A stretch of DNA of 64,000 bases, from positions 724,562 through 788,561 of the forward strand of contig OY969413.1 of NCBI GenBank assembly GCA_963699165.1. The letters are read 5' to 3'. This document shows positions 4,703-29,117 of the stretch, one piece after another (within the stretch, counting starts at the first letter, position 1; each line of letters opens with the position of its first letter). A model generated the notes under the pieces. That model was not told the DNA's origin. It saw only the letters and a program-made list of their open reading frames with translations, and made no database searches. Origin of the DNA: Candidatus Kaiserbacteria bacterium (GTDB taxonomy: Bacteria; Patescibacteriota; Minisyncoccia; Phycocordibacterales; Phycocordibacteraceae). The position numbers and the translations under genes are program-made.

Positions 4703-4773
4703 GCGGGATTAGTTTAATGGTAGAACGTCAGTTTTCCAAACTGAGAGCAGGAGTTCGATTCTCCTATCCCGCA
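4703..4773 (+). tRNA. tRNA-Gly (anticodon TCC)
   Basis: Acceptor GCGGGAT/ATCCCGC, anticodon stem TCAGT/ACTGA loop TTTCCAA, T-arm AGGAG-TTCGATT-CTCCT, discriminator A. Confidence 0.85.
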
Positions 4774-4944
4774 CATACGAACGAAGTGAGAATATGCGGG
4801 ATAAACAAGCCGCCTGCGCGGCTTGTGTGGAGAATCGAAGGCCGCAGCGATGTTTCGCCAGCAGGCGAAACCGCGAGGCGGGGCCGAGAAAATTCGTGAG
4901 TGACGACGAACGAATTATTCCTGGCCGGTTCTCCTATCCCGCAC
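4774..4944 (+). repeat. tRNA-linked structured repeat unit R4 (Gly-TCC version)
   Basis: CATACGAACGAAGTGAGAATATGCGGGATAAAC-[AAGCCGCCTGCGCGGCTT]-GTGTGGAGAATCGAAGGCC antisense to the tRNA 3' end; hairpins GTTTCGCCAGCAGGCGAAAC and GAGAAAATTCGT..ACGAATTATTC; ends GGTTCTCCTATCCCGCAC (direct copy). Confidence 0.6.
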
Positions 4945-5111
4945 AAAACGAGTCCACGAGATTTTGTGCGGGATTGAGCGGGACGCGGGGCGTCCCGCTC
5001 GGAGAATCGAAGGCCGGAGGCGCGACGGCGCCGAGGCGGGGTCGCGCAAATTTTCAGCAGAAAATTATGCGTGACCGAAAGGTGTAATCACCGGTTCTCC
5101 TATCCCGCACA
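4945..5111 (+). repeat. tRNA-linked structured repeat unit R5 (Gly-TCC version, variant)
   Basis: AAAACGAGTCCACGAGATTTTGTGCGGGAT-[GCGGGACGCGGGGCGTCCCGC hairpin]-TCGGAGAATCGAAGGCC ... GGTTCTCCTATCCCGCAC; layout parallels R1. Confidence 0.55.
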
Positions 5112-5159
5112 AATCACCATCAAGAAACCGGTTAAGCATTTCAGCAAAAGTGTTACTAT

Positions 5160-6476
5160 TTGCATAAATTGCCATTAGGAAAAGTTATGGGAAAAATGCA
5201 TCATGGAGAGAGAATTAATCCGCCTCACGAGAAACCTCCCGAGGAGGAAGCGAGAATTCCTGAACAACCCAGAGAAGGAACGCGGGGAAATATCGAGTTC
5301 GTGCCGGAGAATACGTTGGACGCAATAGACGTTGAAGATTTGACTCGTAAACTTTCCAAACTTGATTTTACCAATGACAGTGAGAATAACGTTGCACAGC
5401 TCCGGGATTTTATAAATTTTGACCTTAATCCGAGCGGGACACTTGGATTTCTGGATATTTTGCTTGCTTTGCGAACTGTCGCAAAGCAAGCGTTTGAACA
5501 GGATGGAATATCCGCACCACTCTATTGGACTATATTGGATTATTTTCAGACACGCGAGTCGCTTCCAAAACCATTTGGAACACCGGACGAATTAAACGAC
5601 GACGGTTACGTAGAAGACGGTTTCATCTATACAATCTTGAAAAAGAAGCTCTCCGAAGAACTTGTTACTTTCGCTCACAAACGCGAACGGGGTGCTGATG
5701 AAAGAGCTGTTTTTGTGCCGAGCGACAATACGAAGTTGGACGAAGAGGATGCCGCATTCCTGCATATCTTGAAAGAAAACCATATTACTGATGCCGTTGA
5801 ACATAAACTCGGGATAAAACTTGAAAATCTTGGCGAGCTCGCTCAAATCCGATTTCTTTCATACATTGCAGGACAATCGAACGAGGGCATGGATTGGACT
5901 GCGGAATTGTTCGAAAAGTACACCGAGGAAGAGCGCATACAAATATGCTACACGCTGCTTGCCTTTACGGAATATCCGGAATTAAGTTATACGCTTTTTT
6001 CTTTTTGCGAAGACCCGGAGTATGCGCGGCCGGTCATTAAAATCGTATCGGATATATTGCGGAATGTCGACAAAACGGAAGAATTTTTACGCGCCGAATT
6101 CAAATCGGAAGGGGATCATAAGGCAATTGATTTGCTCCGAAAGAAATTGATTGAGCGGGCAGATTCAGTGCTAAATACATACTTGCGTGCGTGGTATGGC
6201 TATCGTCATAAAGAATATGAAATATCGGAAGAAAATACCGATAGTAAAAAATTACCGGCCGGCGAAAAAGAACGCATTGCGGCAGAAATCGAGGAGTTAA
6301 AAAATGCATTGGCCGAGAAAGCGAAACGTGATCTTCAATACGCCAATGCCGACCAAGTGCTTTTCATGAACGCTTTTAAAACGTTAAAAGATCAAGGGAA
6401 GCTGCGCCTCGAAGATGTGCGAGGCGTTTCGCTTGTGACTGGAAGGTACCCCTTTCTTCGTACACTCATTCTATAA
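5160..6476 (+). CDS. hypothetical acidic protein (438 aa), no recognisable motif
   Basis: Long ORF with coding-like composition between the tRNA/repeat cluster and IS3 element. Confidence 0.45.
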   Translation: MHKLPLGKVMGKMHHGERINPPHEKPPEEEARIPEQPREGTRGNIEFVPENTLDAIDVEDLTRKLSKLDFTNDSENNVAQLRDFINFDLNPSGTLGFLDILLALRTVAKQAFEQDGISAPLYWTILDYFQTRESLPKPFGTPDELNDDGYVEDGFIYTILKKKLSEELVTFAHKRERGADERAVFVPSDNTKLDEEDAAFLHILKENHITDAVEHKLGIKLENLGELAQIRFLSYIAGQSNEGMDWTAELFEKYTEEERIQICYTLLAFTEYPELSYTLFSFCEDPEYARPVIKIVSDILRNVDKTEEFLRAEFKSEGDHKAIDLLRKKLIERADSVLNTYLRAWYGYRHKEYEISEENTDSKKLPAGEKERIAAEIEELKNALAEKAKRDLQYANADQVLFMNAFKTLKDQGKLRLEDVRGVSLVTGRYPFLRTLIL

Positions 6477-6486
6477 GTATAGGATA

Positions 6487-7269
6487 CTATGCTCTGCTCA
6501 GAGCAACAAACTCTCTTGGCGCCATACGCAGTGCTGAGTGAATGCGAGCGGTATTGTGATAGTGGATGGTGAGGTAGATCTCAGCCACTAATTCACCTAA
6601 CGTGTCGAATCGGTTCGGATCACCCAGGTCAATCTTGAACCCTTTGTAGAAGGACTCTTGGTAGCCATTCTCCCAGGGACATCCAGGACGAGACATAGAT
6701 TGCTGTATGCCGATCGTTGCCACGAGCATCGCATAATCCTTTGAGGCATACTCGCTGCCTTGATCCGAATGGATGACACGAGGTGGCGATTTGTGATGTA
6801 GCGCAGAGAGAAGTGCATTCATGATGAGTTGCGTGCTGTGGGTGGTGAGGACTGACACACCGACAATCTCTCGGGAATAGACGTCAAGGATGGTAGCGAC
6901 GTATACCCAGTACCCGTGGTACTTGAGGTAGGTGAAGTCACTCGCCCAGATGTCACCGTCCTGCTCGGGAGTTTGATGGAGCAAGAAGTTCGGGAATATA
7001 CTGTCTTTTGTCTTTAGCACAAATCGCTTCTTTGCGGTCCTCCGATATGGTTTGATACCGAACAATTTCATCACACGCAGAATGCGCTTTTTGTTGACTT
7101 TGAGGTAGAGTGCCAACCGTTTGTGCCCATAGGCGGGATGGCTATGCAGAGCTTCTTCGATGAGTTGCTTTGTGTGCCAATCCCTCCGAGCCTGCTTCGG
7201 CTCGTAGTACAGCGTACTGCGAGCAATACCGCTCTCGCGTGCAAGAGCACTCTTGTTTTCTCTCATCAA
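6487..7269 (-). CDS. IS3-family transposase OrfB (integrase catalytic core)
   Basis: DDE-region motifs WASDFTY, HSDQGSEYAS, C-terminal DLGDPNRFDTLGELVAEIY. Confidence 0.8.
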   Translation of the reverse strand: MMRENKSALARESGIARSTLYYEPKQARRDWHTKQLIEEALHSHPAYGHKRLALYLKVNKKRILRVMKLFGIKPYRRTAKKRFVLKTKDSIFPNFLLHQTPEQDGDIWASDFTYLKYHGYWVYVATILDVYSREIVGVSVLTTHSTQLIMNALLSALHHKSPPRVIHSDQGSEYASKDYAMLVATIGIQQSMSRPGCPWENGYQESFYKGFKIDLGDPNRFDTLGELVAEIYLTIHYHNTARIHSALRMAPREFVALSRA

Positions 7270-7526
7270 GAGCCCCTTTTTTCTCCGTTTGAGAGTTTAA
7301 ACGTCAATTCTCCGATGAGTGCTTTAAGGAGACCGTTCTCCTTCTTCACTCTGTTGTGCTCAATGATACTCACTCCTTTTGCAGAGGTGCCAAGCCAAGC
7401 ATAGATAGTGACGGTACTGACTCCGTGTTCTTTCGCTGCCTCAGCGACACTGATGCCATCGTTTTTGATACGGTTGATAATCTGCTCCTTAATCTCAGGA
7501 GCAATACGGTATGCTTTCTTTGCCAT
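7266..7526 (-). CDS. IS3-family transposase OrfA (HTH)
   Basis: Small HTH protein (ISVAEAAKEHGVSTVTIYAWL) immediately upstream of and overlapping orfB. Confidence 0.75.
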   Translation of the reverse strand: MAKKAYRIAPEIKEQIINRIKNDGISVAEAAKEHGVSTVTIYAWLGTSAKGVSIIEHNRVKKENGLLKALIGELTFKLSNGEKRGS

Positions 7527-7846
7527 AGGTACATTCTAAATTAGCTGCTGGTATTTAGAATGAGTGTCCGACGTTTGGGGTACCTTGCACAGCGGCTCGT
7601 GATTCCTCTTCGCCTGCATGATTTCACGCGCAACACGCACATATTATTTTGCGGCTGCCGGAACTCGTGCGGGTAAGAGGGATCGCATTTGCGATTCCTA
7701 AGCAAAGGCTTGTCTGTGTGCCCGAGAAACACAGAATGTGCGGACGAGACAATGTGCATAATCTTTTGCACATATCTTGCTCGAAGGAGCATCCTGCCGT
7801 GGTCGTCATTACCATGGGTCCGTCAGGAATCCCTAAGGAGGGAAAA

Positions 7847-8788
7847 ATGAACAACATAGCGAAAATTCGTAAGTCGGCCGCCGTCCGCATATGGCGGGTT
7901 TTGAGTCCTCAGGGACTCAACCACCCGATGGTGTGTGCACCATCGGAGTGGTTGCTCGAGCGGCTCGCGGAGTCCTTCGAGTCTGACGCCCAGATCTCTA
8001 AGGAGATCTGGAAAATTGCGTGCAGGGCGTTTGCTCTGCACTACCCGGGGCTCGAACGGCCCCTGGGGTCGTGCTACCACCCGGACGTGCACGACGTGCT
8101 CGACGTCGTGTATCACTACGGGGCGGCGGCGCAACGCGCGTTGCGCAAGACCGCTGCAGCGGCAGCAGTGGTCGTCACGTCCCAGCGCGAGCTGTGGACG
8201 AAGTCGGACGTGTTCCCGACGGAGGAGGGGACGTATTACGTCCCGCCGACCGGGAAGGGCTTCCGGCACGTCGAGTTGACGGCGGGGTATCTCGGCCGTC
8301 TCGCCGACGCGGTGCGCGAAGGTCGCGCACCGGAGGTGCGGGACATCCGTCCCGAATTCTTCGAAGTCGGCTGGGATGCGCGCATCGAAGCGATGCGTCG
8401 CATCGACGCCAAACTGCGCGAGCAGTATGGCGAACTGGCCGCGCTCGTCGCGCGCGACCACCGGGGCGCCATCGTCGAGTCGACTTCGGACCATCTCGAC
8501 TGGTCCGAACGGTGGTATGACAACGGGCACTGCCCGAACGGTCGTACTACCAACCGGATGGAGACCGACGGCCGAAAGGTCGTCATCTCCTCCGAGGAAA
8601 CCGAGGCGCCGCAGGGGTATTTCTGCGGTGGCGGCCGCAGGGAAATCCGGGTGGACAGCGCCACTTACGCCGTCGACGTTCAGTACGAGCCGAGGGTTGG
8701 GTACCGGCTCGGCCGCGTTTATTTGTGGCCGGGGTATAACCCGGCCACGGTCGCGGAGGCGCTCCACGACGCAATGAACCTCAAGTAG
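7847..8788 (+). CDS. hypothetical protein, high-GC island gene 1
   Basis: Strong RBS AAGGAGGG 8 nt upstream of ATG 7847; about 65% GC, unlike surrounding genome; no recognisable domain. Confidence 0.5.
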   Translation: MNNIAKIRKSAAVRIWRVLSPQGLNHPMVCAPSEWLLERLAESFESDAQISKEIWKIACRAFALHYPGLERPLGSCYHPDVHDVLDVVYHYGAAAQRALRKTAAAAAVVVTSQRELWTKSDVFPTEEGTYYVPPTGKGFRHVELTAGYLGRLADAVREGRAPEVRDIRPEFFEVGWDARIEAMRRIDAKLREQYGELAALVARDHRGAIVESTSDHLDWSERWYDNGHCPNGRTTNRMETDGRKVVISSEETEAPQGYFCGGGRREIRVDSATYAVDVQYEPRVGYRLGRVYLWPGYNPATVAEALHDAMNLK

Positions 8789-9014
8789 TTCGCCCCATGT
8801 GCCGTGCCGCATGGACAGTAGTTCTTTCCCGCAAGCGTAGCACGGAGCGCTGGCAACGAGTTTCGGAAAACTCGTAAATATTTCCGAGGTTGGCAGCGAG
8901 CCGGGCGTTAGTCCATTCGCTTGCAGGCAGGTCTGTGGAGTAGGCGACGGCGGTCCGTTGTCTACTCCACTCTATTCAGCCCGCGAATTGTTCGTTGGCT
9001 GATTGAGAATATGA

Positions 9015-9100
9015 AATCGAATTGCCGTTCCTCTTTTCCGATGGTACGCACTTGTGCGTAGTTTCAGGAAAGAGGAACGGCAATCAACGCGATTGTTGTT
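9015..9100 (+). repeat. island repeat B copy 1: long palindrome ATTGCCGTTCCTCTTTTCC..GGAAAGAGGAACGGCAAT with inner GTACGCAC/GTGCGTA hairpin, upstream of island gene 2
   Basis: Near-identical copy at 9826-9905 upstream of island gene 3. Confidence 0.6.
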
Positions 9101-9159
9101 CCGAAAAATACTCGGGCGCGTGAGCGCCAACCGGCACCGAAAGGTGCGAGGAGAGAGTC

Positions 9160-9690
9160 GTGAAATTTTTGCTCCCTAAGTTCGCCTATCACCACTGGTT
9201 GGGCAACCAGGGCCTCACGAGTTATCGTTGGGGGCAGCTCGAGGACCCCGACGTGGAGGTAATCGTTTTCCCGGATGGCCGGGTGTACCTGCCTGCGGGC
9301 GACTTCAAGCAGGCCTATGACCTGCAACAGGTCGGACCCGGAGTGTACCGGCTCCCCGCACCGGTGCCATACCACTGGGCCGGGGAGGAAGCAGACCTTG
9401 TCTGCTTTGGTTGGGGTGATGGGGACCCCGACCAAGAGCTCGTGGTCTGCCCGGATGGCCGTGGGGTCTATATGGCCGCCGGGGACTCCGGCCAGGCCTA
9501 TGCCCTTCGGCGTGGCCAGATGGGCCGGGAGGATTTCCCGATCGGCACCCGGGTCCGGTACCCGGATTTCGGCGAAGGGACCGTCGTCAGCCACGGGCCA
9601 AGTTGGTCCGTCTCCGTTCAATTCGATACGGATCATCCTGCGTCCCTGAGGGCTTTCCAGCCCAGGCGGCTGGAAAAAATCGTTCCGTAG
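9160..9690 (+). CDS. hypothetical protein with internal tandem duplication, island gene 2
   Basis: GTG start after GAGGAGAGAG RBS; internal repeat VFPDGRVYLPAGDFKQAYDL / VCPDGRGVYMAAGDSGQAYAL; high GC. Confidence 0.5.
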   Translation: MKFLLPKFAYHHWLGNQGLTSYRWGQLEDPDVEVIVFPDGRVYLPAGDFKQAYDLQQVGPGVYRLPAPVPYHWAGEEADLVCFGWGDGDPDQELVVCPDGRGVYMAAGDSGQAYALRRGQMGREDFPIGTRVRYPDFGEGTVVSHGPSWSVSVQFDTDHPASLRAFQPRRLEKIVP

Positions 9691-9825
9691 CGGGATGGTT
9701 CCCGCAAAATGGTTCGGGCGGCGCGCGAAAGCGCGCCGCCCACGAGGGACGAGTATGGAATACTCGTTCTTTCTGTATCGGGATGTGTGTCCCGACTGAT
9801 GAGCTCGAAAGGGCGAAACAGAAAT
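9690..9825 (+). repeat. island repeat A copy 1 (about 135 bp) containing hammerhead ribozyme
   Basis: Near-identical to 10456-10592; contains hairpins GGGCGGCGCGCG-AAA-GCGCGCCGCCC and ACGAGTAT-GGA-ATACTCGT, then the hammerhead motif. Confidence 0.7.
9766..9824 (+). ncRNA. type III hammerhead ribozyme (HHR-1)
   Basis: Helix III 5' strand UUCUUUCUG, cleavage triplet GUA (9775-9777), helix I hairpin UCGGGA-UGUGUG-UCCCGA, CUGAUGAG (9796-9803), helix II CUC-GAAA-GGG, CGAAAC (9814-9819), helix III 3' strand AGAAA; 7 Watson-Crick pairs in helix III including A15.1-U16.1. Confidence 0.8.
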
Positions 9826-9905
9826 TGCCGTTCCTCTTTTCCGACGGTACGCGTGGAGCGTAGTTTCAGGAAAGAGGAACGGCAATCAACGCGATTGTTG
9901 TTCCG
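9826..9905 (+). repeat. island repeat B copy 2
   Basis: AATTGCCGTTCCTCTTTTCCGACGGTACGCGTGGAGCGTAGTTTCAGGAAAGAGGAACGGCAATCAACGCGATTGTTGTTCCGA; directly follows HHR-1. Confidence 0.6.
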
Positions 9906-9968
9906 ATGAATTCACTCGGCGCATGTGCGCCGATTCTGCCGCACCGAAAGTGCGACGAGGAGGACACC

Positions 9969-10409
9969 ATGAGTTACTACGGACAAACGACGATTCAATG
10001 CCCGATATGCCAAGTTCAGGCAGGGGAACCATGCCGCGACGGGGGTCCTTTCGGCCACTCCGCGCGAGACACACTCGCGCGGGCGATGCGGTTGTCCGAG
10101 CCCAGAAGGGCTGCTGCGGCCGCTCGGCTGCCTGTCATCCGCCGCGTATGGGCGGATGACCGGGCCTGGATTGTTGATCCAGACCTAGCGGTGCTCCGCG
10201 CTTGGCTCAAGGCGCCGAGTCAAGAGACTTGGCTCGACGCCTACAAGACGGCTCTCAAAATTGAGAGCTGGCTGGCCGATTACGCCCAGCGTTGCAATCT
10301 CGCAATGGAGGCGAGACTAGACGCGGGCGGTCGCGCTATCCACGACCTCATAGACATCCTGCGGAACGAAACCGACGAAGCCGCCGCTGCCTCGCCCGTG
10401 CGCGAGTAG
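9969..10409 (+). CDS. hypothetical protein, island gene 3
   Basis: ATG after GAGGAGGA RBS; begins MSYYGQTTIQCPICQ; high GC. Confidence 0.5.
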   Translation: MSYYGQTTIQCPICQVQAGEPCRDGGPFGHSARDTLARAMRLSEPRRAAAAARLPVIRRVWADDRAWIVDPDLAVLRAWLKAPSQETWLDAYKTALKIESWLADYAQRCNLAMEARLDAGGRAIHDLIDILRNETDEAAAASPVRE

Positions 10410-10455
10410 TTCTTTCCAGTTAATCGCCAGCGCGGCACGGCGCGCTGGCACAAGC

Positions 10456-10592
10456 GCGGGATGGTTCCCGCAAAATGGTTCGGGCGGCGCGCGAAAGCGC
10501 GCCGCCCACGAGGGACGAGTATGGAATACTCGTTCTTTCTGTATCGGGATGTATGTCCCGACTGATGAGCTCGAAAGAGCGAAACAGAAAAG
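10456..10592 (+). repeat. island repeat A copy 2 containing hammerhead ribozyme
   Basis: About 97% identical to 9690-9825. Confidence 0.7.
10533..10591 (+). ncRNA. type III hammerhead ribozyme (HHR-2)
   Basis: GUA cleavage triplet 10541-10543, helix I UCGGGA-UGUAUG-UCCCGA, CUGAUGAG 10562-10569, helix II CUC-GAAA-GAG (perfect), CGAAAC 10580-10585, helix III AGAAA. Confidence 0.8.
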
Positions 10593-10721
10593 TCCACAAA
10601 GGGCTATAGGTCGTTCGAAGAACCGAAATGAAGTGCGGTGTGAGTTCTAAAATCTCTCTCCTCTAGCACTGCACTTTTATTCGAATCTCTCGGCCTGTAG
10701 CCCTTTTGGGATTTCGACAAA

Positions 10722-10749
10722 CCCCGCGCCGCAGGCGCGGGGCTTTTTG
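10722..10749 (+). terminator. rho-independent terminator CCCCGCGCC-GCAG-GCGCGGGG + TTTTT
   Basis: GC hairpin followed by T-run; identical hairpin recurs at 13707-13727. Confidence 0.6.
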
Positions 10750-10833
10750 TATGGTATGTCTTTGCTCAAAATAAACGAAGAATGTTTGGAATTCGAGCCG
10801 CATTTTTGAATGCAAACGTGGTATAATACACAT

Positions 10834-11082
10834 ATGACAGAATTACCGGCCAACATCAAGCGGCTATTCTGGGATATGGATTCGGATGCGCTCGACGCCG
10901 AAAAACACGCCGATGCGATAATCGAACGCGTATTGAATACGGGTTCACTTGCCGATTGGAAATGGCTCGTTCAAAATTATGGAACTGGCGCTATCCAGTC
11001 CCGTCTTTCCCGAAAAACAATGTTTGGCCGCGACAACTTCCGCCCGGAATCGCGCCGTCTTGCATCGCTCATCTTGCGATAA
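10834..11082 (+). CDS. small hypothetical protein upstream of AbiEii gene (possible cognate antitoxin partner)
   Basis: 83-aa ORF ending 1 nt before the AbiEii start codon; TATAAT-like -10 at about 10822. Confidence 0.4.
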   Translation: MTELPANIKRLFWDMDSDALDAEKHADAIIERVLNTGSLADWKWLVQNYGTGAIQSRLSRKTMFGRDNFRPESRRLASLILR

Positions 11083-11083
11083 C

Positions 11084-11710
11084 ATGATTCATTTTGAGGC
11101 ACTAACGTCGGAAGCGCGGGAATTGTTTCCACTCCTTTCGGCGTTCAAAAAAGATTTTTATCTGGCGGGCGGTACGGCGCTTGCACTTCAGCTCGGACAT
11201 CGCATATCCGTCGATTTCGATTTGTTTTCACCGGACCCGATAAAGAAAAATCTGCTCGGAAAAGTCGAGGCGCTGTATGCGCTCCGTACGATTGAAGTTT
11301 TTATAAATAATTCCCGCGAACTCACGCTCACTGTGAGTGGCGTGAAGCACACCTTTCTGCATTATCCGTTTCCGGTTCTTCTTCCTATATCCGAACATGA
11401 GCCGGTGGACACGCTTTCGCCGCAAGAGATTCTCGCCACCAAGGCGTACACGATAGGCAGGAGAGGTTCGCAGAAGGACTACGTCGATTTGTACACCGGA
11501 GTATCCGAGCACGTTTCAACACTCGCGGATGTGATTCAATCGGCACGGACGAAATACGGCGATGCATTTAACGACCGACTATTTCTAGAGCAGCTTCTCT
11601 ATCTAGACGACGTTCCGCAAGCAGCCATGCAGATGCTCAAAGGCGCCGCGCCCACGCGGGAAGAACTTGTAGATTTTTTTCAAAGACAAATTGCAGGACT
11701 CTTATTGTAG
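11084..11710 (+). CDS. nucleotidyltransferase AbiEii/AbiGii toxin-family protein
   Basis: FYLAGGTALALQLGHRISVDFDLFS N-terminal motif characteristic of AbiEii (Pfam PF08843-like) family. Confidence 0.6.
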   Translation: MIHFEALTSEARELFPLLSAFKKDFYLAGGTALALQLGHRISVDFDLFSPDPIKKNLLGKVEALYALRTIEVFINNSRELTLTVSGVKHTFLHYPFPVLLPISEHEPVDTLSPQEILATKAYTIGRRGSQKDYVDLYTGVSEHVSTLADVIQSARTKYGDAFNDRLFLEQLLYLDDVPQAAMQMLKGAAPTREELVDFFQRQIAGLLL

Positions 11711-11871
11711 AAAGAACGATTGAGAGGGAATACAAAAAACGGTCTAACAGTGAAAATTTCACCTTTCAATCGCACATATTGATGCATGGGATAAGAATTT
11801 TGAAAAACAAACTATGTAAGGTTCGTCAAAAATCGGACAACTTTATATAGTTTGCTATGACAAAAAAATTT

Positions 11872-12720
11872 CTACCCCGATGACTTGAGCGGTTTGTTTT
11901 TGAGACTGGCAAGAATGCGCCTGTGGTCTTCTTCCGCCAAATCCCAAAGGTAGTTAAAAATCATTTCAAATGTCGCATGAATGGCGGGATTTTCGATGAT
12001 GGTGGTTATGATTGATTCCTTATAGGCAGTTATGCCGACCTTGTTTCCATACATTAGAATCTGAGCAGGGATGTTCAATCTTTCTGCCGGAACAAAGCGC
12101 CGTGTCGTAAGTCGCTCGGAATCGCGGGCAATGATTTCTTCAAGACTTCTTTTCAAGAGATTTTCCGCCAGTGGAGTAATTGCTTGCGTCTGTATACCTA
12201 ACTTTCTTTGCTCCGCAATTTGAGCTCGTAGTACTTCCGCCAGTTCAGGATGACGATTATCTTCTGGTGAACGAATAAGCTTCATATCCTGCCGATTATT
12301 TAGGATGTCCTCGTACAGCTCTGCCACGCCGGCAACGCCCTCAAGTATCCGTATGCCGGGAGAGCCGGACTTTGCATTGAAATCCGAAATGAGTTTTGCA
12401 AGCACTCCGTCAACGGCGATTCTTGCCTCTTTTGCTTGTTCAAAGCGCTTGTCGACAATCTCTTTCAGTTTGAATGGATGCGCCGCTGAAAAGAGCGCTA
12501 CTTTGCCGGGCGCATCTTCTTTTTCAATAAGTCCCAGCTTTTGTAGTTCTTGAAGCGCTTTATACGCCAAGGTTCGAGGCACTCCCGCGAGCCGCGCTGC
12601 GCGACTCGCGGTCATTTTTCCTTGTCGAACAATCGTTTCGTACATCTTCGCTTGGTGCACCGTCAGACCGCCTTCAGCCAGCGATTGATAATTTGGAGAC
12701 CGCTTTTCATTTGAATTCAT
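11872..12720 (-). CDS. TrmB-family HTH transcriptional regulator
   Basis: N-terminal winged HTH (LTVHQAKMYETIVRQGKMTASRAARLAGVPRTLAYKALQELQKLGLIE). Confidence 0.55.
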   Translation of the reverse strand: MNSNEKRSPNYQSLAEGGLTVHQAKMYETIVRQGKMTASRAARLAGVPRTLAYKALQELQKLGLIEKEDAPGKVALFSAAHPFKLKEIVDKRFEQAKEARIAVDGVLAKLISDFNAKSGSPGIRILEGVAGVAELYEDILNNRQDMKLIRSPEDNRHPELAEVLRAQIAEQRKLGIQTQAITPLAENLLKRSLEEIIARDSERLTTRRFVPAERLNIPAQILMYGNKVGITAYKESIITTIIENPAIHATFEMIFNYLWDLAEEDHRRILASLKNKPLKSSG

Positions 12721-12937
12721 GGATTTAATCCTAATCCTCAATATTTGTTTTGTAAAGTATATTTTACAATTCTACAGTTTGAAATATCGATATTCGGCAA
12801 TAATTTAAAGCATATTTGCAATCATTGTATTTATATGTTGACATAATATATTTTATCGATTACTTTCCTACTTGTCATGGTGTTTCAGGTCAGGCCGACG
12901 CACCGTGACAACATTGATCTTTGTCTAGATGGTTTTG

Positions 12938-13050
12938 CCCCAGCTGAAAATACTTCAAACGCCGTATTGGAGTGTTACCAGCTGAGGCAAATGCCACAGT
13001 CCTTAACTCTCGGGCTAGAGAGTTTCCGACACAGTCGGAGAAGGAGAAAA
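12938..13050 (+). promoter_or_regulatory. conserved structured leader (copy 1) upstream of small high-GC ORF
   Basis: About 85% identical to 13374-13485; CAGCTG..CAGCTG, GGCAAATGCC and TCCGACACAGTCGGA stem-loops followed by GGAGAAGGAG RBS. Confidence 0.45.
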
Positions 13051-13051
13051 C

Positions 13052-13282
13052 ATGGACATGAATACCAACGGCTGCCTCTTGCTGGTCGAGGCAATAATCG
13101 ACCAAGCCCGCCTGGACGAGGCGCGCGAGCCCGGCGCGTTTGCGGAAGCGGTCCTCGAGTGGGGACCGTGGTCGGGGCTCTCTGACGAGGAGCTCGACAC
13201 CGCAATCGCATCGCGGCGGACGCGTCGTGGCCGGTCGGAGAACGGGAGAGATGTTTCCGGAAAAACTCCTCTCCCCCTTTGA
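13052..13282 (+). CDS. small hypothetical protein (76 aa), high GC
   Basis: ATG 8 nt after GGAGAAGGAG RBS. Confidence 0.4.
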   Translation: MDMNTNGCLLLVEAIIDQARLDEAREPGAFAEAVLEWGPWSGLSDEELDTAIASRRTRRGRSENGRDVSGKTPLPL

Positions 13283-13373
13283 TGGGCGCATAAGCATACG
13301 CTTGTGCACCCATAGAGGACGCTCATTGTCTTTATCTAGCGCAGACTATCTACTCTGCAAAATATGCCTTTGC

Positions 13374-13485
13374 CTTAGCTGAAAATACTTCAAGCTCATA
13401 TGGAGTGTTACCAGCTGGGGCAAATGCCACGACCCCATCTCTCGGGTATGAGAGTTTCCGACACAGTCGGAGAAGGGTCCCAACT
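13374..13485 (+). promoter_or_regulatory. conserved structured leader (copy 2)
   Basis: Paralogous to 12938-13050. Confidence 0.45.
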
Positions 13486-13692
13486 ATGAGCAAGACCGCC
13501 ACGAATCTGGTTGTGCTGGTGCTCATGGCCGCCATCGTGGCCGCCAATGTGTCGGGGTGGGTCCTCTACGGGATGCATCAGCATCCGTGGTGGGCAATGC
13601 CGGTACGCTGGACAGCGTTCTCCGTACTTGCAATCTTCGCGATTGCCGGCGCGGTGAAGTTGGCCGCTGACTGGAGGAAGCCATCGCCATGA
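13486..13692 (+). CDS. small membrane protein (68 aa), high GC
   Basis: MSKTATNLVVLVLMAAIVAANVSGWVLYG... two predicted TM helices; followed by terminator. Confidence 0.4.
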   Translation: MSKTATNLVVLVLMAAIVAANVSGWVLYGMHQHPWWAMPVRWTAFSVLAIFAIAGAVKLAADWRKPSP

Positions 13693-13706
13693 AATTCCTC
13701 CGTCCA

Positions 13707-13735
13707 ACCCCGCGCCGCAGGCGCGGGGTTTGTTG
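13707..13735 (+). terminator. rho-independent terminator CCCCGCGCCGCAGGCGCGGGG + TTTGTTGT
   Basis: Same hairpin sequence as at 10722. Confidence 0.55.
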
Positions 13736-13762
13736 TATTCAAAATCGGCGTAGTATGAGGGC

Positions 13763-14890
13763 ATGGAACCCCTCGCCGCTCGGATACGACCGCAGACGCT
13801 CGACGAAGTCGTGGGGCAGGAACACCTTGTGGGAGAAGGGAAGCCGCTTCGCGTCGCAGTCGAGAAGAAGCACAAGTTTTCTTTCATATTGTGGGGACCG
13901 CCCGGAACAGGGAAGACGACCATCGCGCGCATTTATGCGCGCGCGCTTCACGCGGCGCTTTTTGAACTATCGGCGGTTTCGGCAGGGAAGGACGACGTCC
14001 GAAAAATCATCGCCGCCGATGCGAAAGGGAAGGACAAGGTGTTGTTTCTCGACGAAATCCACCGGTTTAACAAAAGCCAGCAGGATTTTCTCCTGCCGTA
14101 TGTCGAAAGCGGGGAATTGACGCTCATCGGCGCGACGACGGAAAATCCTTCGTTTGAAGTCATCTCACCGCTTTTGTCGCGCTGCCGCGTCTTTGTGCTT
14201 GAACCGCTCTCGGAAGAAGCGCTTCGCGCCATCGTTAAGCGCACGAAGCTGAAAGTGAAAAAGGATGCATTTGATTGGCTTTTGGGGTACGCGAACGGCG
14301 ACGCCCGCAAAGCGCTCGGTATGATGGAAGGCGCACAGAGTTTATATGGAGAAATTACGGCCGAGACGCTAAGCAATGCGCTTGAGTCGCCGCATCTGCG
14401 CTACGACAAAAAGGGCGAGGAGCACTACGACACCGTGAGCGCGTTTATAAAAAGCATGCGCGCTTCGCAGGCAAATGCGGCGATGTATTATCTTGCGCGC
14501 ATGGTCGAAGCAGGGGAGGACCCGATATTTATTGCACGAAGGATGGTTGTTTTCGCTTCGGAAGACGTGGGCCTTGCTCAGCCGACGGCGCTCGTCGTCG
14601 CAAATGCCGTCTTTCGCGCATGCGAGACCATCGGCTACCCTGAATGCGCGATAAATCTGGCGCACGGCGTCGCGTACCTCGCACAGGCAAAGAAAGACCG
14701 CTCCGCTTACGACGCGTTACGCGCCGCGCAGGCGGACGTACGCGAGTACGGAAACCTGCCCGTGCCGAAGAAAATTCGAAACCCGGTCACGAAACTGATG
14801 AAAGACCTCGACTACGGCAAAGGATACGAAAAGTATGATTCCGAGGATTATCTGCCGGACGCATTAAAGAAAAAGAGGTATTTTAAATAA
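13763..14890 (+). CDS. rarA: replication-associated recombination protein A (AAA+ ATPase, MgsA/WRNIP1 family)
   Basis: IRPQTLDEVVGQEHL, Walker A GPPGTGKTT, FLDEIHRFNKSQQD motifs. Confidence 0.85.
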   Translation: MEPLAARIRPQTLDEVVGQEHLVGEGKPLRVAVEKKHKFSFILWGPPGTGKTTIARIYARALHAALFELSAVSAGKDDVRKIIAADAKGKDKVLFLDEIHRFNKSQQDFLLPYVESGELTLIGATTENPSFEVISPLLSRCRVFVLEPLSEEALRAIVKRTKLKVKKDAFDWLLGYANGDARKALGMMEGAQSLYGEITAETLSNALESPHLRYDKKGEEHYDTVSAFIKSMRASQANAAMYYLARMVEAGEDPIFIARRMVVFASEDVGLAQPTALVVANAVFRACETIGYPECAINLAHGVAYLAQAKKDRSAYDALRAAQADVREYGNLPVPKKIRNPVTKLMKDLDYGKGYEKYDSEDYLPDALKKKRYFK

Positions 14891-14898
14891 CATACGGT

Positions 14899-16341
14899 TT
14901 AAGGATTCCAATGGAGAATCGGCATTTGTATGTCGGTCGGTGAATACAAAAGGTCAAAGTAGCTGCCGGTATACAAAACTTTCAAATTCGGGAAATACGT
15001 TGCCCCCGCCGGACTGACTGCCATGTAGAACGGACCTTTAAATGGCTTTCCGGTCACATCGGCGGGATTGACCGGTATCGCGCGTGCATTTCCGTAATAA
15101 TCAAATGTTTCGACGGGTATGAAGTCGAGAAGGTACAGCGGTGTGCCGTTTGGATTTTGTTGTTTATACATCTCTCCGACTGCTTTCTCATCGCCGGTAT
15201 ATGGCGGTATTTTGGCAGGCATAAGATACATGCAAAATGCGGCTGCAATCAATATGCATATCGCCGTTATTGCGAAGAACATCGTCTTGTTTTGAGGCCA
15301 AATGAAAGATAGATCGTAATAGAGAATTGCCACGCAAATCGCAAAAAACGGAAAGGCGGGCATGATATATGGAGCCAAGTGAGTTTGAGCAGAAGTAAAC
15401 ACGGTGAAAATAAAGACGGCCGAGAGCACGGGCGGAAGGATGTTCGTAAACGTGACTTTTCTCTTACGTTGTTCCGAAAAAGCGGCTGCACATAAAGCAA
15501 TAAATCCTCCGACAATTAAAAAATTCCATGGCCAGTTCGAAGGCAGGAACCACGGAACGAAAAGCACAAAATAATCGCCCGGGTTATTTGTACCGGTCAT
15601 CGTTGCCGCAGCTCTGTGAAAGACCTGTACACCCAGGTAGTTATCCCAAAATGCATTTCCGAACCGAATTGTCTCGTATAGATGCCACGGAACGATGATG
15701 GCGAGCGCCGGCAAACCCCCGAGCCACAAATAGCGGCTTTTGATGAAAGTCCATTTTTTATAGAAGACACTGTAAAGGAGAATAATCGGCAGAACGAGCA
15801 AAATGATTACGCTTTTAAATAGAAAACCGATTGCGATGCACGGGAAAACCCAGAATAGATACTTTTCATTCTTCCGGGACTTGATAAAGAAAAATAAGGC
15901 CGCGAGCAAGGATGCAACGACCGCCGAATCAAGCCGCATTTCTCTTGCATATGCAAAAAAGGCGCTTGAAAAGAGCAGGGTTAGAAAGCCGAACATCGCC
16001 GCTATCGGGTCGCCGGTTAGCTCCAGGGCGATGAGATATACCAACCAGCAGCACAACACCGATGCGATAATGCCCGGCAAACGAAAGGCAAATTCGCGCT
16101 CGCCAAATATTTTTGCGCTAGCCATTGCCGACCATATATATAAAGGCGGTTTTTCAAACCAGTTGTTTCCTTGGTGTTGAAGGGTGAGGAAATTCCCGCT
16201 ATGCATCGTGTCGACAACCACTTGAGCATAAGTGGCTTCGTCATAGTCCACGAGTGGACGATTGGCGTCTATGCAAAGAAAAATCCCGGCAATCAAGACG
16301 AGGGCAAGCTGTGTAGCCAGAGCGTATTTTTTGAAAAAAGC
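14899..16341 (-). CDS. GT39/ArnT-like membrane glycosyltransferase (PMT_2-like)
   Basis: Polytopic membrane protein with DYDEATYAQVVVDTMHSGNFLTLQHQGNNWFEKPPLYIW motif typical of ArnT/PMT-family; N-terminal boundary uncertain (no in-frame ATG before HU gene; likely alternative start). Confidence 0.5.
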   Translation of the reverse strand, partial: AFFKKYALATQLALVLIAGIFLCIDANRPLVDYDEATYAQVVVDTMHSGNFLTLQHQGNNWFEKPPLYIWSAMASAKIFGEREFAFRLPGIIASVLCCWLVYLIALELTGDPIAAMFGFLTLLFSSAFFAYAREMRLDSAVVASLLAALFFFIKSRKNEKYLFWVFPCIAIGFLFKSVIILLVLPIILLYSVFYKKWTFIKSRYLWLGGLPALAIIVPWHLYETIRFGNAFWDNYLGVQVFHRAAATMTGTNNPGDYFVLFVPWFLPSNWPWNFLIVGGFIALCAAAFSEQRKRKVTFTNILPPVLSAVFIFTVFTSAQTHLAPYIMPAFPFFAICVAILYYDLSFIWPQNKTMFFAITAICILIAAAFCMYLMPAKIPPYTGDEKAVGEMYKQQNPNGTPLYLLDFIPVETFDYYGNARAIPVNPADVTGKPFKGPFYMAVSPAGATYFPNLKVLYTGSYFDLLYSPTDIQMPILHWNP

Positions 16342-16483
16342 ATCAAGTTTGGACACAATGCAAGGATAGCAAAATACCCGGGTATTGAAACGGCAATATG
16401 CCGCGAAGACAGGGTAAAACGGTATTTCAAATAAAAACAAGCGCGGCGCCAAAGGCGCCGCGCTTGTTTTTACTACACAAACC

Positions 16484-16759
16484 TTATTTAACCGCGTCCT
16501 TGAGGGCCTTTGCGGGGCGGAACTTCGCCGTGCGCGTTGCTGCGATATGAATCGTCTCGCCGGTGCGAGGATTGCGGCCCTGACGAGCAGGGCGTGCTTT
16601 CGTCGCAAAAATACCGAGACCGGCAACCGAGACCTCATCGCCCGACTTGAGCGAGGAGACGATTGAGTCAATGACTGTCTCAACAGCGCGCTCCGCATCG
16701 GCCTTCGTTGTGCCGAGAACTGCGTGCACTTTGTCGACAATGTCTGCTTTGTTTGCCAT
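16484..16759 (-). CDS. hup: DNA-binding protein HU
   Basis: MANKADIVDKVHAVLGTTKADAERAVETVID...GLGIFATKARPARQGRNPRTGETI canonical HU fold motifs. Confidence 0.9.
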   Translation of the reverse strand: MANKADIVDKVHAVLGTTKADAERAVETVIDSIVSSLKSGDEVSVAGLGIFATKARPARQGRNPRTGETIHIAATRTAKFRPAKALKDAVK

Positions 16760-17026
16760 GTATATTTGCTAACTGCTAATCCCACGACCTGTCTTTGGGT
16801 GGGTATGGGGAAAGTATAGGAAATGAGCCATTTTACGCAATGGCCTTTACAACCCGCCGTGGATAGCGCGAAATTTGGAACATTGGCATTAAAAGAGCTC
16901 CGCATAATTATGCGGAGCTCTGAAAACAGCCTTCGGCTCATATTGATCGATATCACTTTTCTGCCAAAGCCCTCGCTACTGGCTCGTGCGATCATTAGCT
17001 CGCGGGGGTACGGTTTAGAACACCCC

Positions 17027-17563
17027 TCAATGCTGTTCTTTTTCGCATTTGACGCGCCCGAGCTCAAGAAGTGGCTCGACGACATATTTGTTAACCTCGG
17101 GTACTCCCTTACGAATCCTCTTGAGCAGAAGCGGCAACGCTTTGTGCAGCAATACCACGTTTGCAGGCGGCATATCATTCAACTCGGCCGCGACTGACGT
17201 TCCCTCCTCTCCCGGAAACGGATTGACCCGTATCGTATTATCGCCCAGGAAGCGCACGTATGCATCTACTCCCCACGTTGATGTGTGACTGGCTTCAATA
17301 TCCCAGTAGACCGCGGCTACTTCTTGAGCCTCAACAAATTCCGGCCCGCCGCGACGTACATTCCAGATGTAATACGTGTCTACGAATAAGACCGACATGA
17401 ATTTGACGATTTCTTTCTTCTTTTCCTCCAGCCGGTCGCTGCCAACCAGAAGTTGGTCGACCATATTAGGCGGCCGCTTTGCCCGCTCAATCATGCTAAG
17501 CACAGCGCCGAGGATACCGATTAGACCAATCACTCCAACCATGACAATGATGTTGCTGTTCAC
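17027..17563 (-). CDS. hypothetical membrane-anchored protein
   Basis: N-terminal TM helix MNSNIIVMVGVIGLIGILGAVL; no known motif. Confidence 0.4.
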   Translation of the reverse strand: MNSNIIVMVGVIGLIGILGAVLSMIERAKRPPNMVDQLLVGSDRLEEKKKEIVKFMSVLFVDTYYIWNVRRGGPEFVEAQEVAAVYWDIEASHTSTWGVDAYVRFLGDNTIRVNPFPGEEGTSVAAELNDMPPANVVLLHKALPLLLKRIRKGVPEVNKYVVEPLLELGRVKCEKEQH

Positions 17564-17618
17564 GTTATTTCCCTTTCAAGGGAGCGTGCTATCTGATACA
17601 AGTGTAGTCCTTCGGACA

Positions 17619-18548
17619 CGTTTTCTAATCAATAGCTTGGACGCATTCTGTTAATATGGCGAGCGGCGTTTTGAGGTCGAGCCCGAAGTGGTGGCGGGTG
17701 GTGTTGTACCCGCTCAGATAGGTCGGCAGAATCGCATTGATTGCCCGTATCTCAATCGAAAGAGCATCAAGACACTCTTCACGCAGTGTGCGATTGAATC
17801 GCTCGACGTGCGCATTGTCGTTGCTCTGCCTGACTCTCGTGTGTCGATGGCGTATCGAGAGGCGTTCGGTGAAGTGCATGGAGAACTCGGGGCCATTGTC
17901 GGTCTGCACGCACTCGAACAGGAATGGTGCCGCAACCTGTGCCCGCTTCACGAAGAGGAGAGAGACGCGGCAGTTGATGCGCGGGGTCGCCCAGGCGTAC
18001 GCCCAACGGCTGTATACATCGATTAGTGTATACACGTACAGAACCGTTTTGCCGTGGAGTGCCAGATGGATGGTGTCCACCTCCACAAGAGCGCCCGGAT
18101 ATGCGGCTTCCGGACGTTCCGAGTGCGGGTGGTACCGTTTCCACGGGCTCCGCTTTTTGATGAGGCCGAAACGACCGAGCGTCCGCTTCACCGACGAGAG
18201 CGACACCGAGACACCCTCGTCTTCGAGCGCCCGGTGTACGACCTCGGCCGAGCGTTTGAGTACGAGACGCTTCTCGACAATCTTGTTCACAATCTTCGAC
18301 GGCAGCTCGTTTGGATGATTCCTCGGTTTTGATGAGAGCGTCGGAATCGGATGATACCCGTATATCTTCGCCTTCTTCACCCATTTGCATACCGTACTCG
18401 ACCCGACGCCGAACCGACGGCCAACCTCGGTGGGCGTATATCCTCTCCTCACCATGTCTGCAGCATCCCTTCTGACCTTGGGCATGTGCGGGTTTTGTGT
18501 GTATGCCATGACGCGATGATATCGCGTCCAAGCTATTGAACCATTACG
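17619..18548 (-). mobile_element. IS481-like (single-ORF rve/DDE) insertion sequence, copy A
   Basis: 100% identical over about 930 bp to inverted copy B at 29118-30046; terminal inverted repeats sharing TCAATAGCTTGGACGC. Confidence 0.8.
17625..18509 (-). CDS. IS481-family transposase
   Basis: N-terminal HTH (GYTPTEVGRRFGVGSSTVCKWV), DDE core TDNGPEF ... NAHVERFNRTLREE. Confidence 0.8.
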   Translation of the reverse strand: MAYTQNPHMPKVRRDAADMVRRGYTPTEVGRRFGVGSSTVCKWVKKAKIYGYHPIPTLSSKPRNHPNELPSKIVNKIVEKRLVLKRSAEVVHRALEDEGVSVSLSSVKRTLGRFGLIKKRSPWKRYHPHSERPEAAYPGALVEVDTIHLALHGKTVLYVYTLIDVYSRWAYAWATPRINCRVSLLFVKRAQVAAPFLFECVQTDNGPEFSMHFTERLSIRHRHTRVRQSNDNAHVERFNRTLREECLDALSIEIRAINAILPTYLSGYNTTRHHFGLDLKTPLAILTECVQAID

Positions 18549-22446: not shown

Positions 22447-22829
22447 GGGGTTTGGGTGCCACGACTACACTGTTGCGAAAATAACATTTCCTTGCAACTT
22501 GTCAAACCTTTCAAAACAAAAGCTAAGCGCTCGCGGGGTGTAAATCCGCGAGCGCTTGGTTCCCGGCCTGCATATCAGTTGAGCGCAGGCCCGGTTTCGG
22601 ACTCACTCGCCTGCGGCTCCTCGCATACCGCCGCGAACGCGAGAAATCGGGTCTTGAAAAGCAGGGCAACCCCAAACCCTGCCAGTAGCCAGGCGAAAAG
22701 CCCGGCGATGATTTGAATGAGCACGAGCGACCCTTCCCCTGCTTAACGGCAGAGATAAATGCAAGCTTCTGCAAGTATTACATACTTGCAGAAGCTTGTC
22801 AACCCTTTCGTTCAGCGCTGTGGATATCT

Positions 22830-29003: not shown

Positions 29004-29117
29004 ATGACGTCATTCTAGCGGTTAATCCCGTCTAGAACATGGTCTGAAATTTGGGGGTCAGGTCAGACTGCCAAATGTATCTGAACTTATGCATCCGGCA
29101 CCGCGCCCAGGATTCCC

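Follow-up and report, generated by a model that had tools for sequence, protein, structure and literature searches.

We analyzed a 64-kb stretch of Candidatus Kaiserbacteria DNA (contig OY969413.1), hereafter the window, which is chromosomal DNA of a bacterium of the candidate phyla radiation (CPR; Patescibacteria) and in which family scans identify dnaA/dnaN, glycolysis, pilus, and competence genes together with five DDE transposases. Our subject is a GC-rich island at 7847-10590, where three genes, all on the + strand, alternate with two kinds of repeats, one of them containing a hammerhead ribozyme (HHR). Positions 7464-18548 of the window are 100% identical to contig JBAPNL010000088 (GCA_049279115.1; locus L001). 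The island and its borders contain the following features.

6440-7589, - strand: insertion sequence (IS) of the IS3 family, left border of the island; context, outside the operon
7700-7846, + strand: gene 1 leader, a conserved structured 5' leader ending in an AAGGAGG Shine-Dalgarno (SD) sequence
7847-8788, + strand: gene 1, 313 aa, with a helical N-terminal and a beta-sandwich C-terminal part
8789-9019, + strand: spacer between genes 1 and 2, a run of stable hairpins (e.g., 8830-8855 and 8935-8970) with no active ribozyme
9020-9159, + strand: repeat B copy 1, with a 64-nt hairpin (9021-9084), the small hairpin CAACGCGATTGTTG, two GC hairpins, and the GAGGAG SD of gene 2
9160-9690, + strand: gene 2, 176 aa, GTG start, with two blade-like ~60-aa repeats and a small C-terminal beta domain
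9690-9824, + strand: repeat A copy 1, with hairpins at 9690-9705, 9716-9741, and ~9744-9772, then HHR-1 (9770-9824)
9823-9968, + strand: repeat B copy 2, with a hairpin (9824-9886), a diverged leader with compensated hairpins, and the GAGGAGG SD of gene 3
9969-10409, + strand: gene 3, 146 aa, with an N-terminal phage-type zinc finger and a helical C-terminal part
10456-10590, + strand: repeat A copy 2, with the same three hairpins, then HHR-2 (10536-10590)
10722-10750, + strand: intrinsic terminator, nine G-C pairs and then a T-run, probable 3' end of the transcription unit

Repeat A (9690-9824 and 10456-10590) is 135 nt long and stands 3' of genes 2 and 3. Its copies are 99% identical, with two mismatches, one in loop I (9787) and one that changes a U-G pair of stem II to U-A (9812), and pairing is kept throughout. 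The initial annotation of this DNA had placed a copy after every gene, which holds for genes 2 and 3 and not for gene 1; the hammerhead that it saw in each copy is confirmed by two covariance models. At Rfam gathering thresholds the whole window yields four tRNAs only, and the Rfam model RF00008 (Hammerhead_3) matches HHR-1 with 45.1 bits (E = 6.7e-8) and HHR-2 with 46.4 bits (E = 2.7e-8), in both cases over the whole model. Model R1, derived from 25 IMG/VR phage hammerheads, none of them from the window, scores both A copies at full length with 72.4 bits (E = 4e-20) and has no other match in the 64 kb. Both ribozymes read UGUA/UCGGGA...UCCCGA CUGAUGA GCUC GAAA GRGC GAAA CAGA, the slash marking the predicted cleavage site. 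Their invariant core is complete (C3 U4 G5 A6 N7 G8 A9, G12 A13 A14, A15.1-U16.1, G10.1-C11.1), and the cleavage-site residue H17 is A in both. Stem I (6-7 bp, loop UGUGUG or UGUAUG) and stem II (4 bp, GAAA loop) are loop-closed, and stem III, of 5 bp (UCUGU/ACAGA), is open. Judged by their sequence, HHR-1 and HHR-2 are predicted type III hammerheads, expected to cleave between A9777 and U9778 and between A10543 and U10544, sites that lie 766 nt apart. HHR-1 sits between genes 2 and 3, and the two ribozymes, both on the + strand, bracket gene 3.

Hammerheads of this build are found in phages. A degenerate core pattern detected 48 loci in IMG/VR viral contigs, and ~30 distinct sites among them are type III hammerheads of like design: stem III has 4-5 bp, stem I has 6 bp and a (U)GUGUG-like loop, CUGAUGA follows, stem II has 4 bp and a loop of GAAA or GAAAC type, and then comes GAAAC. 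As in the island, the ribozyme of 26 of 30 phage examples is immediately preceded by a hairpin of -10 kcal/mol or lower. Where assignable, an SD-led open reading frame (ORF) begins a median of 29 nt after the phage ribozyme, and three phage contigs (L007, L013, and L020) have paired hammerheads around one gene. On these features, the 3' part of repeat A can be classed as a standard phage "hairpin + type III hammerhead" unit. A match of the sbcD RNA motif (RF01757), a family from Burkholderiales, to 9684-9779, over hairpins 1-3 of repeat A, was rejected; it reaches 38.2 bits against a gathering score of 40, skips 51 model positions, and is probably a resemblance between GC hairpins.

Repeat B, which stands 5' of genes 2 and 3, corresponds to an ~85-bp element with a ribosome-binding-site (RBS) leader that had been described before these genes, and its presence there is confirmed. 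Its two copies are 96-97% identical (9020-9109 versus 9823-9911), the second starting directly at the 3' end of HHR-1. Homology then runs on, diverged and with insertions and deletions, to the SD sequence, giving 85% identity over 144 nt and, for repeat B plus leader, 86% mean column identity in a 184-column alignment. The palindrome at its center consists of 16 perfect pairs, a 1-nt bulge, and 2 pairs (left arm 19 nt, right arm 18 nt), so that the inverted repeat of 18 bp is not perfect, as first described, but broken by the bulge. Arms of 31 nt are 84% complementary and enclose a small apical hairpin, whose stem is kept but shorter in copy 2; the apical differences between the copies keep pairing. 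The 19-mer arm has 4 matches where 0.03 are expected, and no further occurrence with up to 3 mismatches was found in the 64 kb beyond the two B copies. Extragenic palindromes of the repetitive extragenic palindromic or bacterial interspersed mosaic element type require many dispersed copies and were rejected on that ground.

The spacer between genes 1 and 2 lacks repeat A but has related elements. Hairpin 8830-8855 is homologous to 10425-10450, and the 3' flanks of genes 1 and 3 have TAGTTCTTTCC plus a hairpin in common. Directly before B copy 1, CTGAtTGAG...GAAAtcG aligns to the ribozyme part of repeat A, suggesting a possible decayed hammerhead at ~8975-9019, which gets no score from the phage-only model R1. 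Both intergenic RNAs are strongly folded (z -8.5 and -8.7), the fold of 8789-9162 reaching -172 kcal/mol (z -8.5). At the start of the spacer, two copies of TAGTTC, one at the stop codon of gene 1 and the other 33 nt further (8786-8830), bracket the small hairpin CCATGTGCCGTGCCGCATGG; this looks like a tiny insertion with a 6-bp duplication.

Outside the window, the repeats were sought by exact-pattern scans, which diverged copies may escape. Patterns for the 29-mer ribozyme part and the 26-mer hairpin 2 of repeat A, exact or degenerate, had no match in IMG/VR and JGI metagenomes, and the B 19-mer had none in IMG/VR. Ten single matches of the B 19-mer in GTDB genomes were set aside as chance RBS-like sequences, all of them without a partner arm and several lying antisense to an RBS and ATG. 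The two-arm B pattern matched one metagenome contig (L065), an unrelated case which turned up because its hairpin has the SD-like arm of B; there the hairpin AAGAGGAACGGC (L065:1737-1791) sequesters the RBS of an ORF (445 aa, transposase-like) that has inverted repeats on either side. Neither B nor the part of A outside the ribozyme was thus found anywhere else, a result that the initial annotation had named as telling against a cassette system, and the scans revealed no family of alternative cargo bounded by A or B.

RNA folding distinguishes the island, coding sequences included. In a sliding profile, every 300-nt segment of 7501-10650 has a z of -2.2 to -8.5, with flanks near zero and a background of -0.43 +/- 1.5 over the rest of the 64 kb. 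Relative to dinucleotide shuffles, z is -10.1 for gene 1, -2.9 for gene 2, and -4.9 to -5.1 for gene 3, compared with -2.3 to +1.0 for 20 control coding pieces of the window. The surroundings of phage hammerheads are less structured than the island (mean z -1.9; 17% of windows reach -4 or less). Gene 1 has been analyzed furthest. Its z is -11.9 against codon permutation and -8.1 against synonymous-codon shuffles that keep the protein, the latter giving -6.4, -4.4, and -6.2 for three homologs and -0.8, -2.3, and -4.75 for three control genes. Seven homologs (L002, L003, L004, L006, L066, L067, and L068) lie at z -5.4 to -7.6, and their neighboring genes are not structured. A consensus fold from a protein-guided codon alignment of seven homologs has -87.3 kcal/mol versus -52.5 +/- 5.0 for shuffled codon columns (alifold z -7.0), and 48 of its 148 pairs show compensatory double changes. 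Codon-position differences of 0.41, 0.35, and 0.56 are consistent with a protein-coding gene. The sense strand is favored over the antisense (-87.3 versus -65.8 kcal/mol) and G-U cells exceed A-C cells (186 versus 32), which assigns the structure of gene 1 to the mRNA strand more than to DNA. Together, the dense, conserved hairpins of this mRNA point to selection for a compact, nuclease-resistant RNA.

The gene 1 family also has a conserved leader. One of ~150-170 nt lies upstream of every family member and could be aligned in 6-8 loci; 53 nt of it are 94% identical between the island and L002, where the proteins are only ~45% identical. It folds into a hairpin (CUGUGU/ACACAG) and a long-range helix (ACGGAC/GUCCGU) around two hairpins, one of which covaries (GUGG/CCAU, GUGA/UCAC, GAGU/ACUC). 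RNAalifold finds 30 pairs, of which 8 show compensatory changes; pairing holds in 91.6% of cells, versus 28-53% when the partners are slid, and the covariation of 0.318 (0.210 +/- 0.026 in shuffles) was reached by none of 500 shuffles. The leader has no match in Rfam, and its pattern none in IMG/VR, making it a candidate new cis-regulatory RNA of Patescibacteria. In two loci (L004 and L005) the gene 1 homolog is followed, after 180 nt, by a candidate type III hammerhead whose core is CUGACGA and whose stem II loop has 17 nt, in the order GC hairpin, candidate hammerhead, intrinsic terminator, like HHR-2 and the terminator at 10722-10750.

L002:3690-3859, L004:1866-2041, L006:1-182, L066:296-470, L067:338-512, L068:1-143: relatives of the gene 1 leader
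L004:3174-3240 and L005:2089-2155: candidate hammerhead after the gene 1 homolog, 30.6 bits with R1 (E ~1e-7) and 20.6 bits with Rfam

Gene 1 is a separate, conserved unit, and its conservation across 7 lineages extends to its leader and its internal structure. The protein has eight relatives, the window's own protein among them, which are 32-60% identical and lack Pfam domains. Their contexts differ (beside uvrD and glycolysis genes in L002, beside tRNAs in L006), and in all five loci measured the homolog is a local GC peak, at 59-71% versus 40-57% in the flanks. An AlphaFold2 model of gene 1 (predicted local distance difference test [pLDDT] 78; predicted template modeling score 0.68) gave no fold match in PDB and BFVD with Foldseek at E <= 0.001, and a gene 1 profile found nothing in IMG/VR.

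Genes 2 and 3 have no such family. In a word-index search of 5.8 billion proteins at E <= 0.001 each matched only itself. Gene 2 has an internal duplication, as initially proposed, which is significant against shuffles (local score 90 versus 26.5 +/- 5.1) and follows the motif DPDxExxVxPDGRxVYxxAGDxxQAY. Against 1.8e9 representative sequences, phmmer gave weak multi-stretch matches (best E 5e-9) to proteins of 445-631 aa, and 9 of the 10 matches scanned are 7-bladed Lactonase propellers. By sequence, gene 2 resembles a pair of beta-propeller blades with a stub attached; its single-sequence AlphaFold2 model (pLDDT 39) is unusable. A UvrD/PcrA-type Tudor domain at its C terminus was considered and dropped, as Pfam gives no support. 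Gene 3 carries the zinc finger PF24623 (E = 2.7e-6; 27.4 bits versus a cutoff of 24), and its C terminus has a weak match in a viral locus (L050; E = 1.5e-4 in a tiny database). It starts at ATG 9969, which has a perfect SD, whereas ATG 9906, the start of the 167-aa version in public records, has none. The three proteins had been described as domain-free, which is true of genes 1 and 2 in Pfam and not of gene 3, whose length is 146 rather than 147 aa. Besides PF24623, genes 1-3 gave nothing in Pfam, PHROGs, NCBIfam, and PADLOC, and nothing in sequence searches of PDB. Neither DNA similarity of the island nor tblastn of genes 1-3 produced a match in 50,697 phage genomes. Two antisense ORFs are treated as artefacts of high GC, that at 7823-8812 because gene 1 homologs conserve the + frame and that at 9064-9885 because it crosses repeats A and B.

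In base composition, GC content is 0.60-0.67 between 7751 and 10500 and 0.47-0.48 on either side (500-nt windows). Over 7847-10590 it is 61.7%, against 53.6% for the whole 64 kb, placing the island first among all 2744-nt windows (mean 0.537, standard deviation 0.029; top 0.16%). The sharp rise reported earlier is therefore confirmed, with a mean of ~62% instead of 65% and with 65-67% only in gene cores. GC at third codon positions (GC3) is 0.81, 0.74, and 0.69 in genes 1-3 and exceeds that at first and second positions (GC1 and GC2) in all three alike. Tetranucleotide deviation is modest (raw z 1.7; GC-corrected correlation 0.77, z -1.5) and smaller than in the IS-rich stretch at 26.5-30.5 kb. 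The foreign composition proposed initially is supported.

The repeat-gene-repeat layout noticed at the outset is real and is echoed 2.3 kb downstream, past AbiEi/AbiEii and a TrmB-like regulator, in a second cassette pair.

12936-13740, + strand: second cassette pair (repeat C, gene 4, repeat C, gene 5, duplicate terminator)
~12936-13050 and ~13367-13482, + strand: the copies of repeat C, 84% identical
13052-13282, + strand: gene 4, 76 aa
13486-13692, + strand: gene 5, 68 aa, hydrophobic

The 21-nt terminator hairpin of the island (10722-10742) recurs exactly at 13708-13728, and the second pair too shows RNA structure, with z -4 to -7 in its folding windows. Neither gene 4 nor gene 5 has a Pfam or PHROG match.

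The setting of the island is a tRNA-adjacent, IS-rich variable region beside AbiE. The IS3 element has 34-nt terminal inverted repeats at 6440-6473 and 7556-7589, which puts its end at 7589 and not at 7560, as previously given; its OrfA has HTH_Tnp_1 and its OrfB rve. Through its insertion the last 4 codons of a 438-aa ORF (5160-6476; GC 44%) were replaced, an ORF with no family match in Pfam, PHROGs, NCBIfam, and PADLOC. Farther left, three copies of 16-23 nt from the 3' end of tRNA-Gly(UCC) stand at 4755, 4925, and 5091 (spacing 166-170 nt; region 4755-5113), and the 340 nt after this tRNA fold at -184 kcal/mol, z falling to -13.7 in a 300-nt window. The repeats look like att-like integration scars, the other candidate being an unrecognized structured RNA. 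Elsewhere, a 930-nt rve-transposase segment is present twice, 100% identical and in opposite orientation (17619-18548 and 29117-30046), and a 300-nt window at ~22501-22800, outside the island, has a folding z of -7.5.

On balance, we think it probable that the island came by horizontal transfer and is an accessory operon with a ribozyme-processed, stabilized transcript, built by recombination between regulatory RNA modules. As its source, a phage of candidate-phyla bacteria, or another of their mobile elements, is most likely. The phage derivation suggested in the initial annotation gains from the phage-type ribozymes, PF24623, and GC content, and is weakened by the lack of relatives in phage genomes and IMG/VR. 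PF24623, the att-like tRNA-Gly repeats, and the neighboring AbiE are pointers to a prophage context; the island genes have no integrase or PHROG match, and no structural phage genes lie nearby.

In the mechanism that we propose, a single transcript would begin upstream of the gene 1 leader, at ~7.65-7.7 kb, and end at the 10722-10750 terminator, the one canonical intrinsic terminator on the + strand. The intergenic GC hairpins lack T-runs, and other + strand terminator matches are weak or intragenic. The hammerheads would cut this transcript in cis after A9777 and A10543. Each upstream mRNA would gain a 2',3'-cyclic phosphate end just past stable hairpins and so be shielded from 3' exonucleases, and each downstream mRNA would start from a 5'-OH, with the folded ribozyme next and, in the case of gene 3, also the B hairpin, shielding it from 5'-end-dependent decay. 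Genes 2 and 3 could thereby become separate, individually stabilized mRNAs without a stop in transcription. Repeat B and its leader may be a 5' untranslated module that acts as a stabilizer, or as a site for RNase III or binding of a regulator, and that supplies a strong SD. Strong, properly spaced SD sequences precede every ORF, and such leaders would drive translation of each cleaved piece.

The arrangement itself, clustered phage-type hammerheads, is already known; what sets this case apart is its unusual host, together with the leader of gene 1 and the conserved saturation with hairpins. Perreault et al. (2011, PLoS Comput Biol, PMC3088659) reported hundreds of bacterial hammerheads, many near prophage integrases, including clusters that flank single prophage genes; ~2-kb polycistronic RNAs were cleaved in vitro, and processing into single-gene mRNAs was proposed. 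In the literature searched, we found no papers linking hammerheads with Patescibacteria or the CPR. The island resembles the prophage clusters in having same-strand intergenic hammerheads that bracket single genes, mostly of uncharacterized function, and in the order hairpin, ribozyme, SD, with 72.4 bits from the phage model. Unlike them, it lies in a chromosome of Minisyncoccia (CPR) with no integrase or recognizable prophage genes nearby, its ribozyme is part of a 135-nt three-hairpin module duplicated at 99%, a 145-nt B hairpin and leader stand between ribozyme and start codon (~29 nt in phages), and its coding regions are saturated with hairpins.

For the history of the repeats, T4-type phages offer a precedent, as shuffling mediated by promoter early stem-loops (PeSLs) is documented in them (Arbiol et al. 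2010, PMC2839356; Comeau et al. 2014, PMC4122927). PeSL cassettes likewise have repeated stem-loop modules flanking ORFans in variable regions, which here are A, B, C, and the terminator, each present twice, with five small ORFs; recombination between PeSL copies inserts, deletes, or swaps single genes. By analogy, PeSL-like recombination may be the most economical origin for the A, B, C, and terminator duplicates, which would have come to surround unrelated ORFs by duplication and homologous recombination, with no site-specific recombination involved. The modules differ in that a PeSL is an early promoter plus terminator stem-loop of ~50-70 nt, whereas those here are 135-145 nt with a ribozyme or a long hairpin and SD, the A and B hairpins lack T-runs, and no sigma-70-like promoter was found in the island. 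A parallel for the stabilizing role is the early region of phage T7, where long hairpins between genes, processed by RNase III, define and stabilize single-gene mRNAs. The B hairpin (~27 pairs) is sized like an RNase III substrate and might be read in the same way, although here a cis-acting ribozyme is predicted to cut at at least two sites.

Several observations weigh against the operon interpretation. Both hammerheads fall 2-3 bits under the RF00008 gathering score of 48.5, and the conservation between the A copies is uninformative on function because they are 99% identical. No promoter-like site was seen on the + strand inside the island, but CPR promoters are poorly known, and co-transcription is for this reason unproven. 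The role of B is purely what we infer, since no second example of it exists. "Phage-derived" follows from the ribozyme class, one Pfam domain, and composition, with nothing further, as 50,697 phage genomes and IMG/VR contain no relative of any island protein. Finally, the island has a mean folding z of about -5.5, compared with -1.9 around phage hammerheads, and mRNA stabilization may not suffice to explain the difference.

It is unlikely, in our judgment, that the island is instead the decaying remnant of a mobile element, with some or all ORFs and ribozymes inert and the repeats a recent, functionless local duplication. The near-identity of the A and B copies fits recent duplication, but the differences in A and those at the apex of B preserve pairing. 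A dead hammerhead possibly precedes B copy 1, yet both ribozyme cores downstream are intact at all invariant positions. The protein databases searched contain no close homologue of genes 2 and 3, and gene 2 resembles two propeller blades plus a stub, but GC3 lies above GC1 and GC2 in all three genes and every ORF has its strong, correctly spaced SD. With no integrase or structural phage genes nearby and IS3 abutting the island, a remnant is a natural thought; the conservation of gene 1, its leader, and its internal structure across 7 lineages speaks against it.

We see a small chance of an RNA-level life for the gene 1 unit, since the strength and conservation of the structure in gene 1 exceed the usual needs of simple mRNA stabilization. 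The hammerheads would then release a 766-nt RNA (HHR, B, gene 3, hairpins) that an RtcB-type ligase circularizes, translatable or mobile, as in retrozymes; in a broader form, leader, gene 1, and 3' hammerhead would be the DNA "launch copy" of a coding RNA like viroids or Obelisks. The 766-nt unit is delimited, as in retrozymes and in viroid-like and Obelisk RNAs, by type III hammerheads in direct repeats, here tandem and 99% identical, and once excised folds at -389 kcal/mol (z -11); the pairing is local, however, with a median span of 25-31 nt, and not rod-like. Gene 1 shows RNA-virus-like conserved structure on the sense strand of its coding sequence, and its homologs retain their own GC in every host context, but the unit is protein-coding chromosomal DNA between host genes, and the ORFs of the window that were scanned include neither RtcB nor a reverse transcriptase. 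L004/L005, a second lineage, have a candidate 3' hammerhead after the homolog, yet it is a single ribozyme, in one other lineage of ~6 with downstream sequence. Perreault et al. sought circular or spliced products from clustered bacterial hammerheads and saw none (PMC3088659). We therefore hold it improbable that the gene 1 unit and the 766-nt gene 3 unit are chromosomal launch copies of a protein-coding, ribozyme-excised RNA element. If they were, the RNA, compacted by hairpins in its coding sequence like the genomes of RNA viruses and viroid-like agents, might be circularized, packaged, and transferred, which would account for the family keeping its GC and RNA structure in every host.

Very improbable is an integron-like site-specific array, in which A and/or B would be attC-like folded sites and an integrase elsewhere would reshuffle the ORF cassettes: as in integron cassettes, small same-strand ORFs, mostly without known homologues, lie between imperfect inverted repeats in repeat-gene-repeat units of one orientation, each DNA strand of B, taken singly, forms a stable hairpin (-25 to -28 kcal/mol; z -5.9 to -7.2), and an IS and foreign composition are at hand, but the 45 ORFs scanned across the 64 kb include no tyrosine recombinase, only 5 rve DDE transposases, no attC pair of the form RYYYAAC...GTTRRRY occurs on either strand of 7590-10810 (shuffles give 0.33), and neither IntI, an attC R/L-box consensus, nor attI was found in the window. 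The palindrome lies 5' of the genes, joined to an SD leader, instead of 3' like attC, the spacers (278-372 nt) far exceed attC in length, B is absent from IMG/VR with its 10 GTDB matches and 1 metagenome match being chance RBS-like ones, and the conserved structure of gene 1 favors the sense RNA strand and uses G-U pairs. The integron-like interpretation of the initial annotation, for which integrase search and attC scan both came up empty, is thus largely refuted within the window.

The operon interpretation, which we continue to prefer, places phage-type hammerheads in a chromosome of the candidate phyla radiation. According to a 2019 review (PMC6765202), the biological role of hammerheads is still open, and for the clustered ones of bacteria and phages the question dates back to 2011. 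The locus is a compact, testable case, offering two intact ribozymes in near-identical modules, four predicted RNA ends, and hairpin blocks flanking each cut. The mRNA of the gene 1 family combines a covarying 5' leader, hairpins in the coding sequence that resist shuffling, and, in two lineages, a predicted 3' hammerhead. Conserved RNA structure so strong across a whole gene is familiar from RNA viruses and not from chromosomal genes, and it would be of real interest if nuclease evasion or an RNA-level life cycle underlies it.

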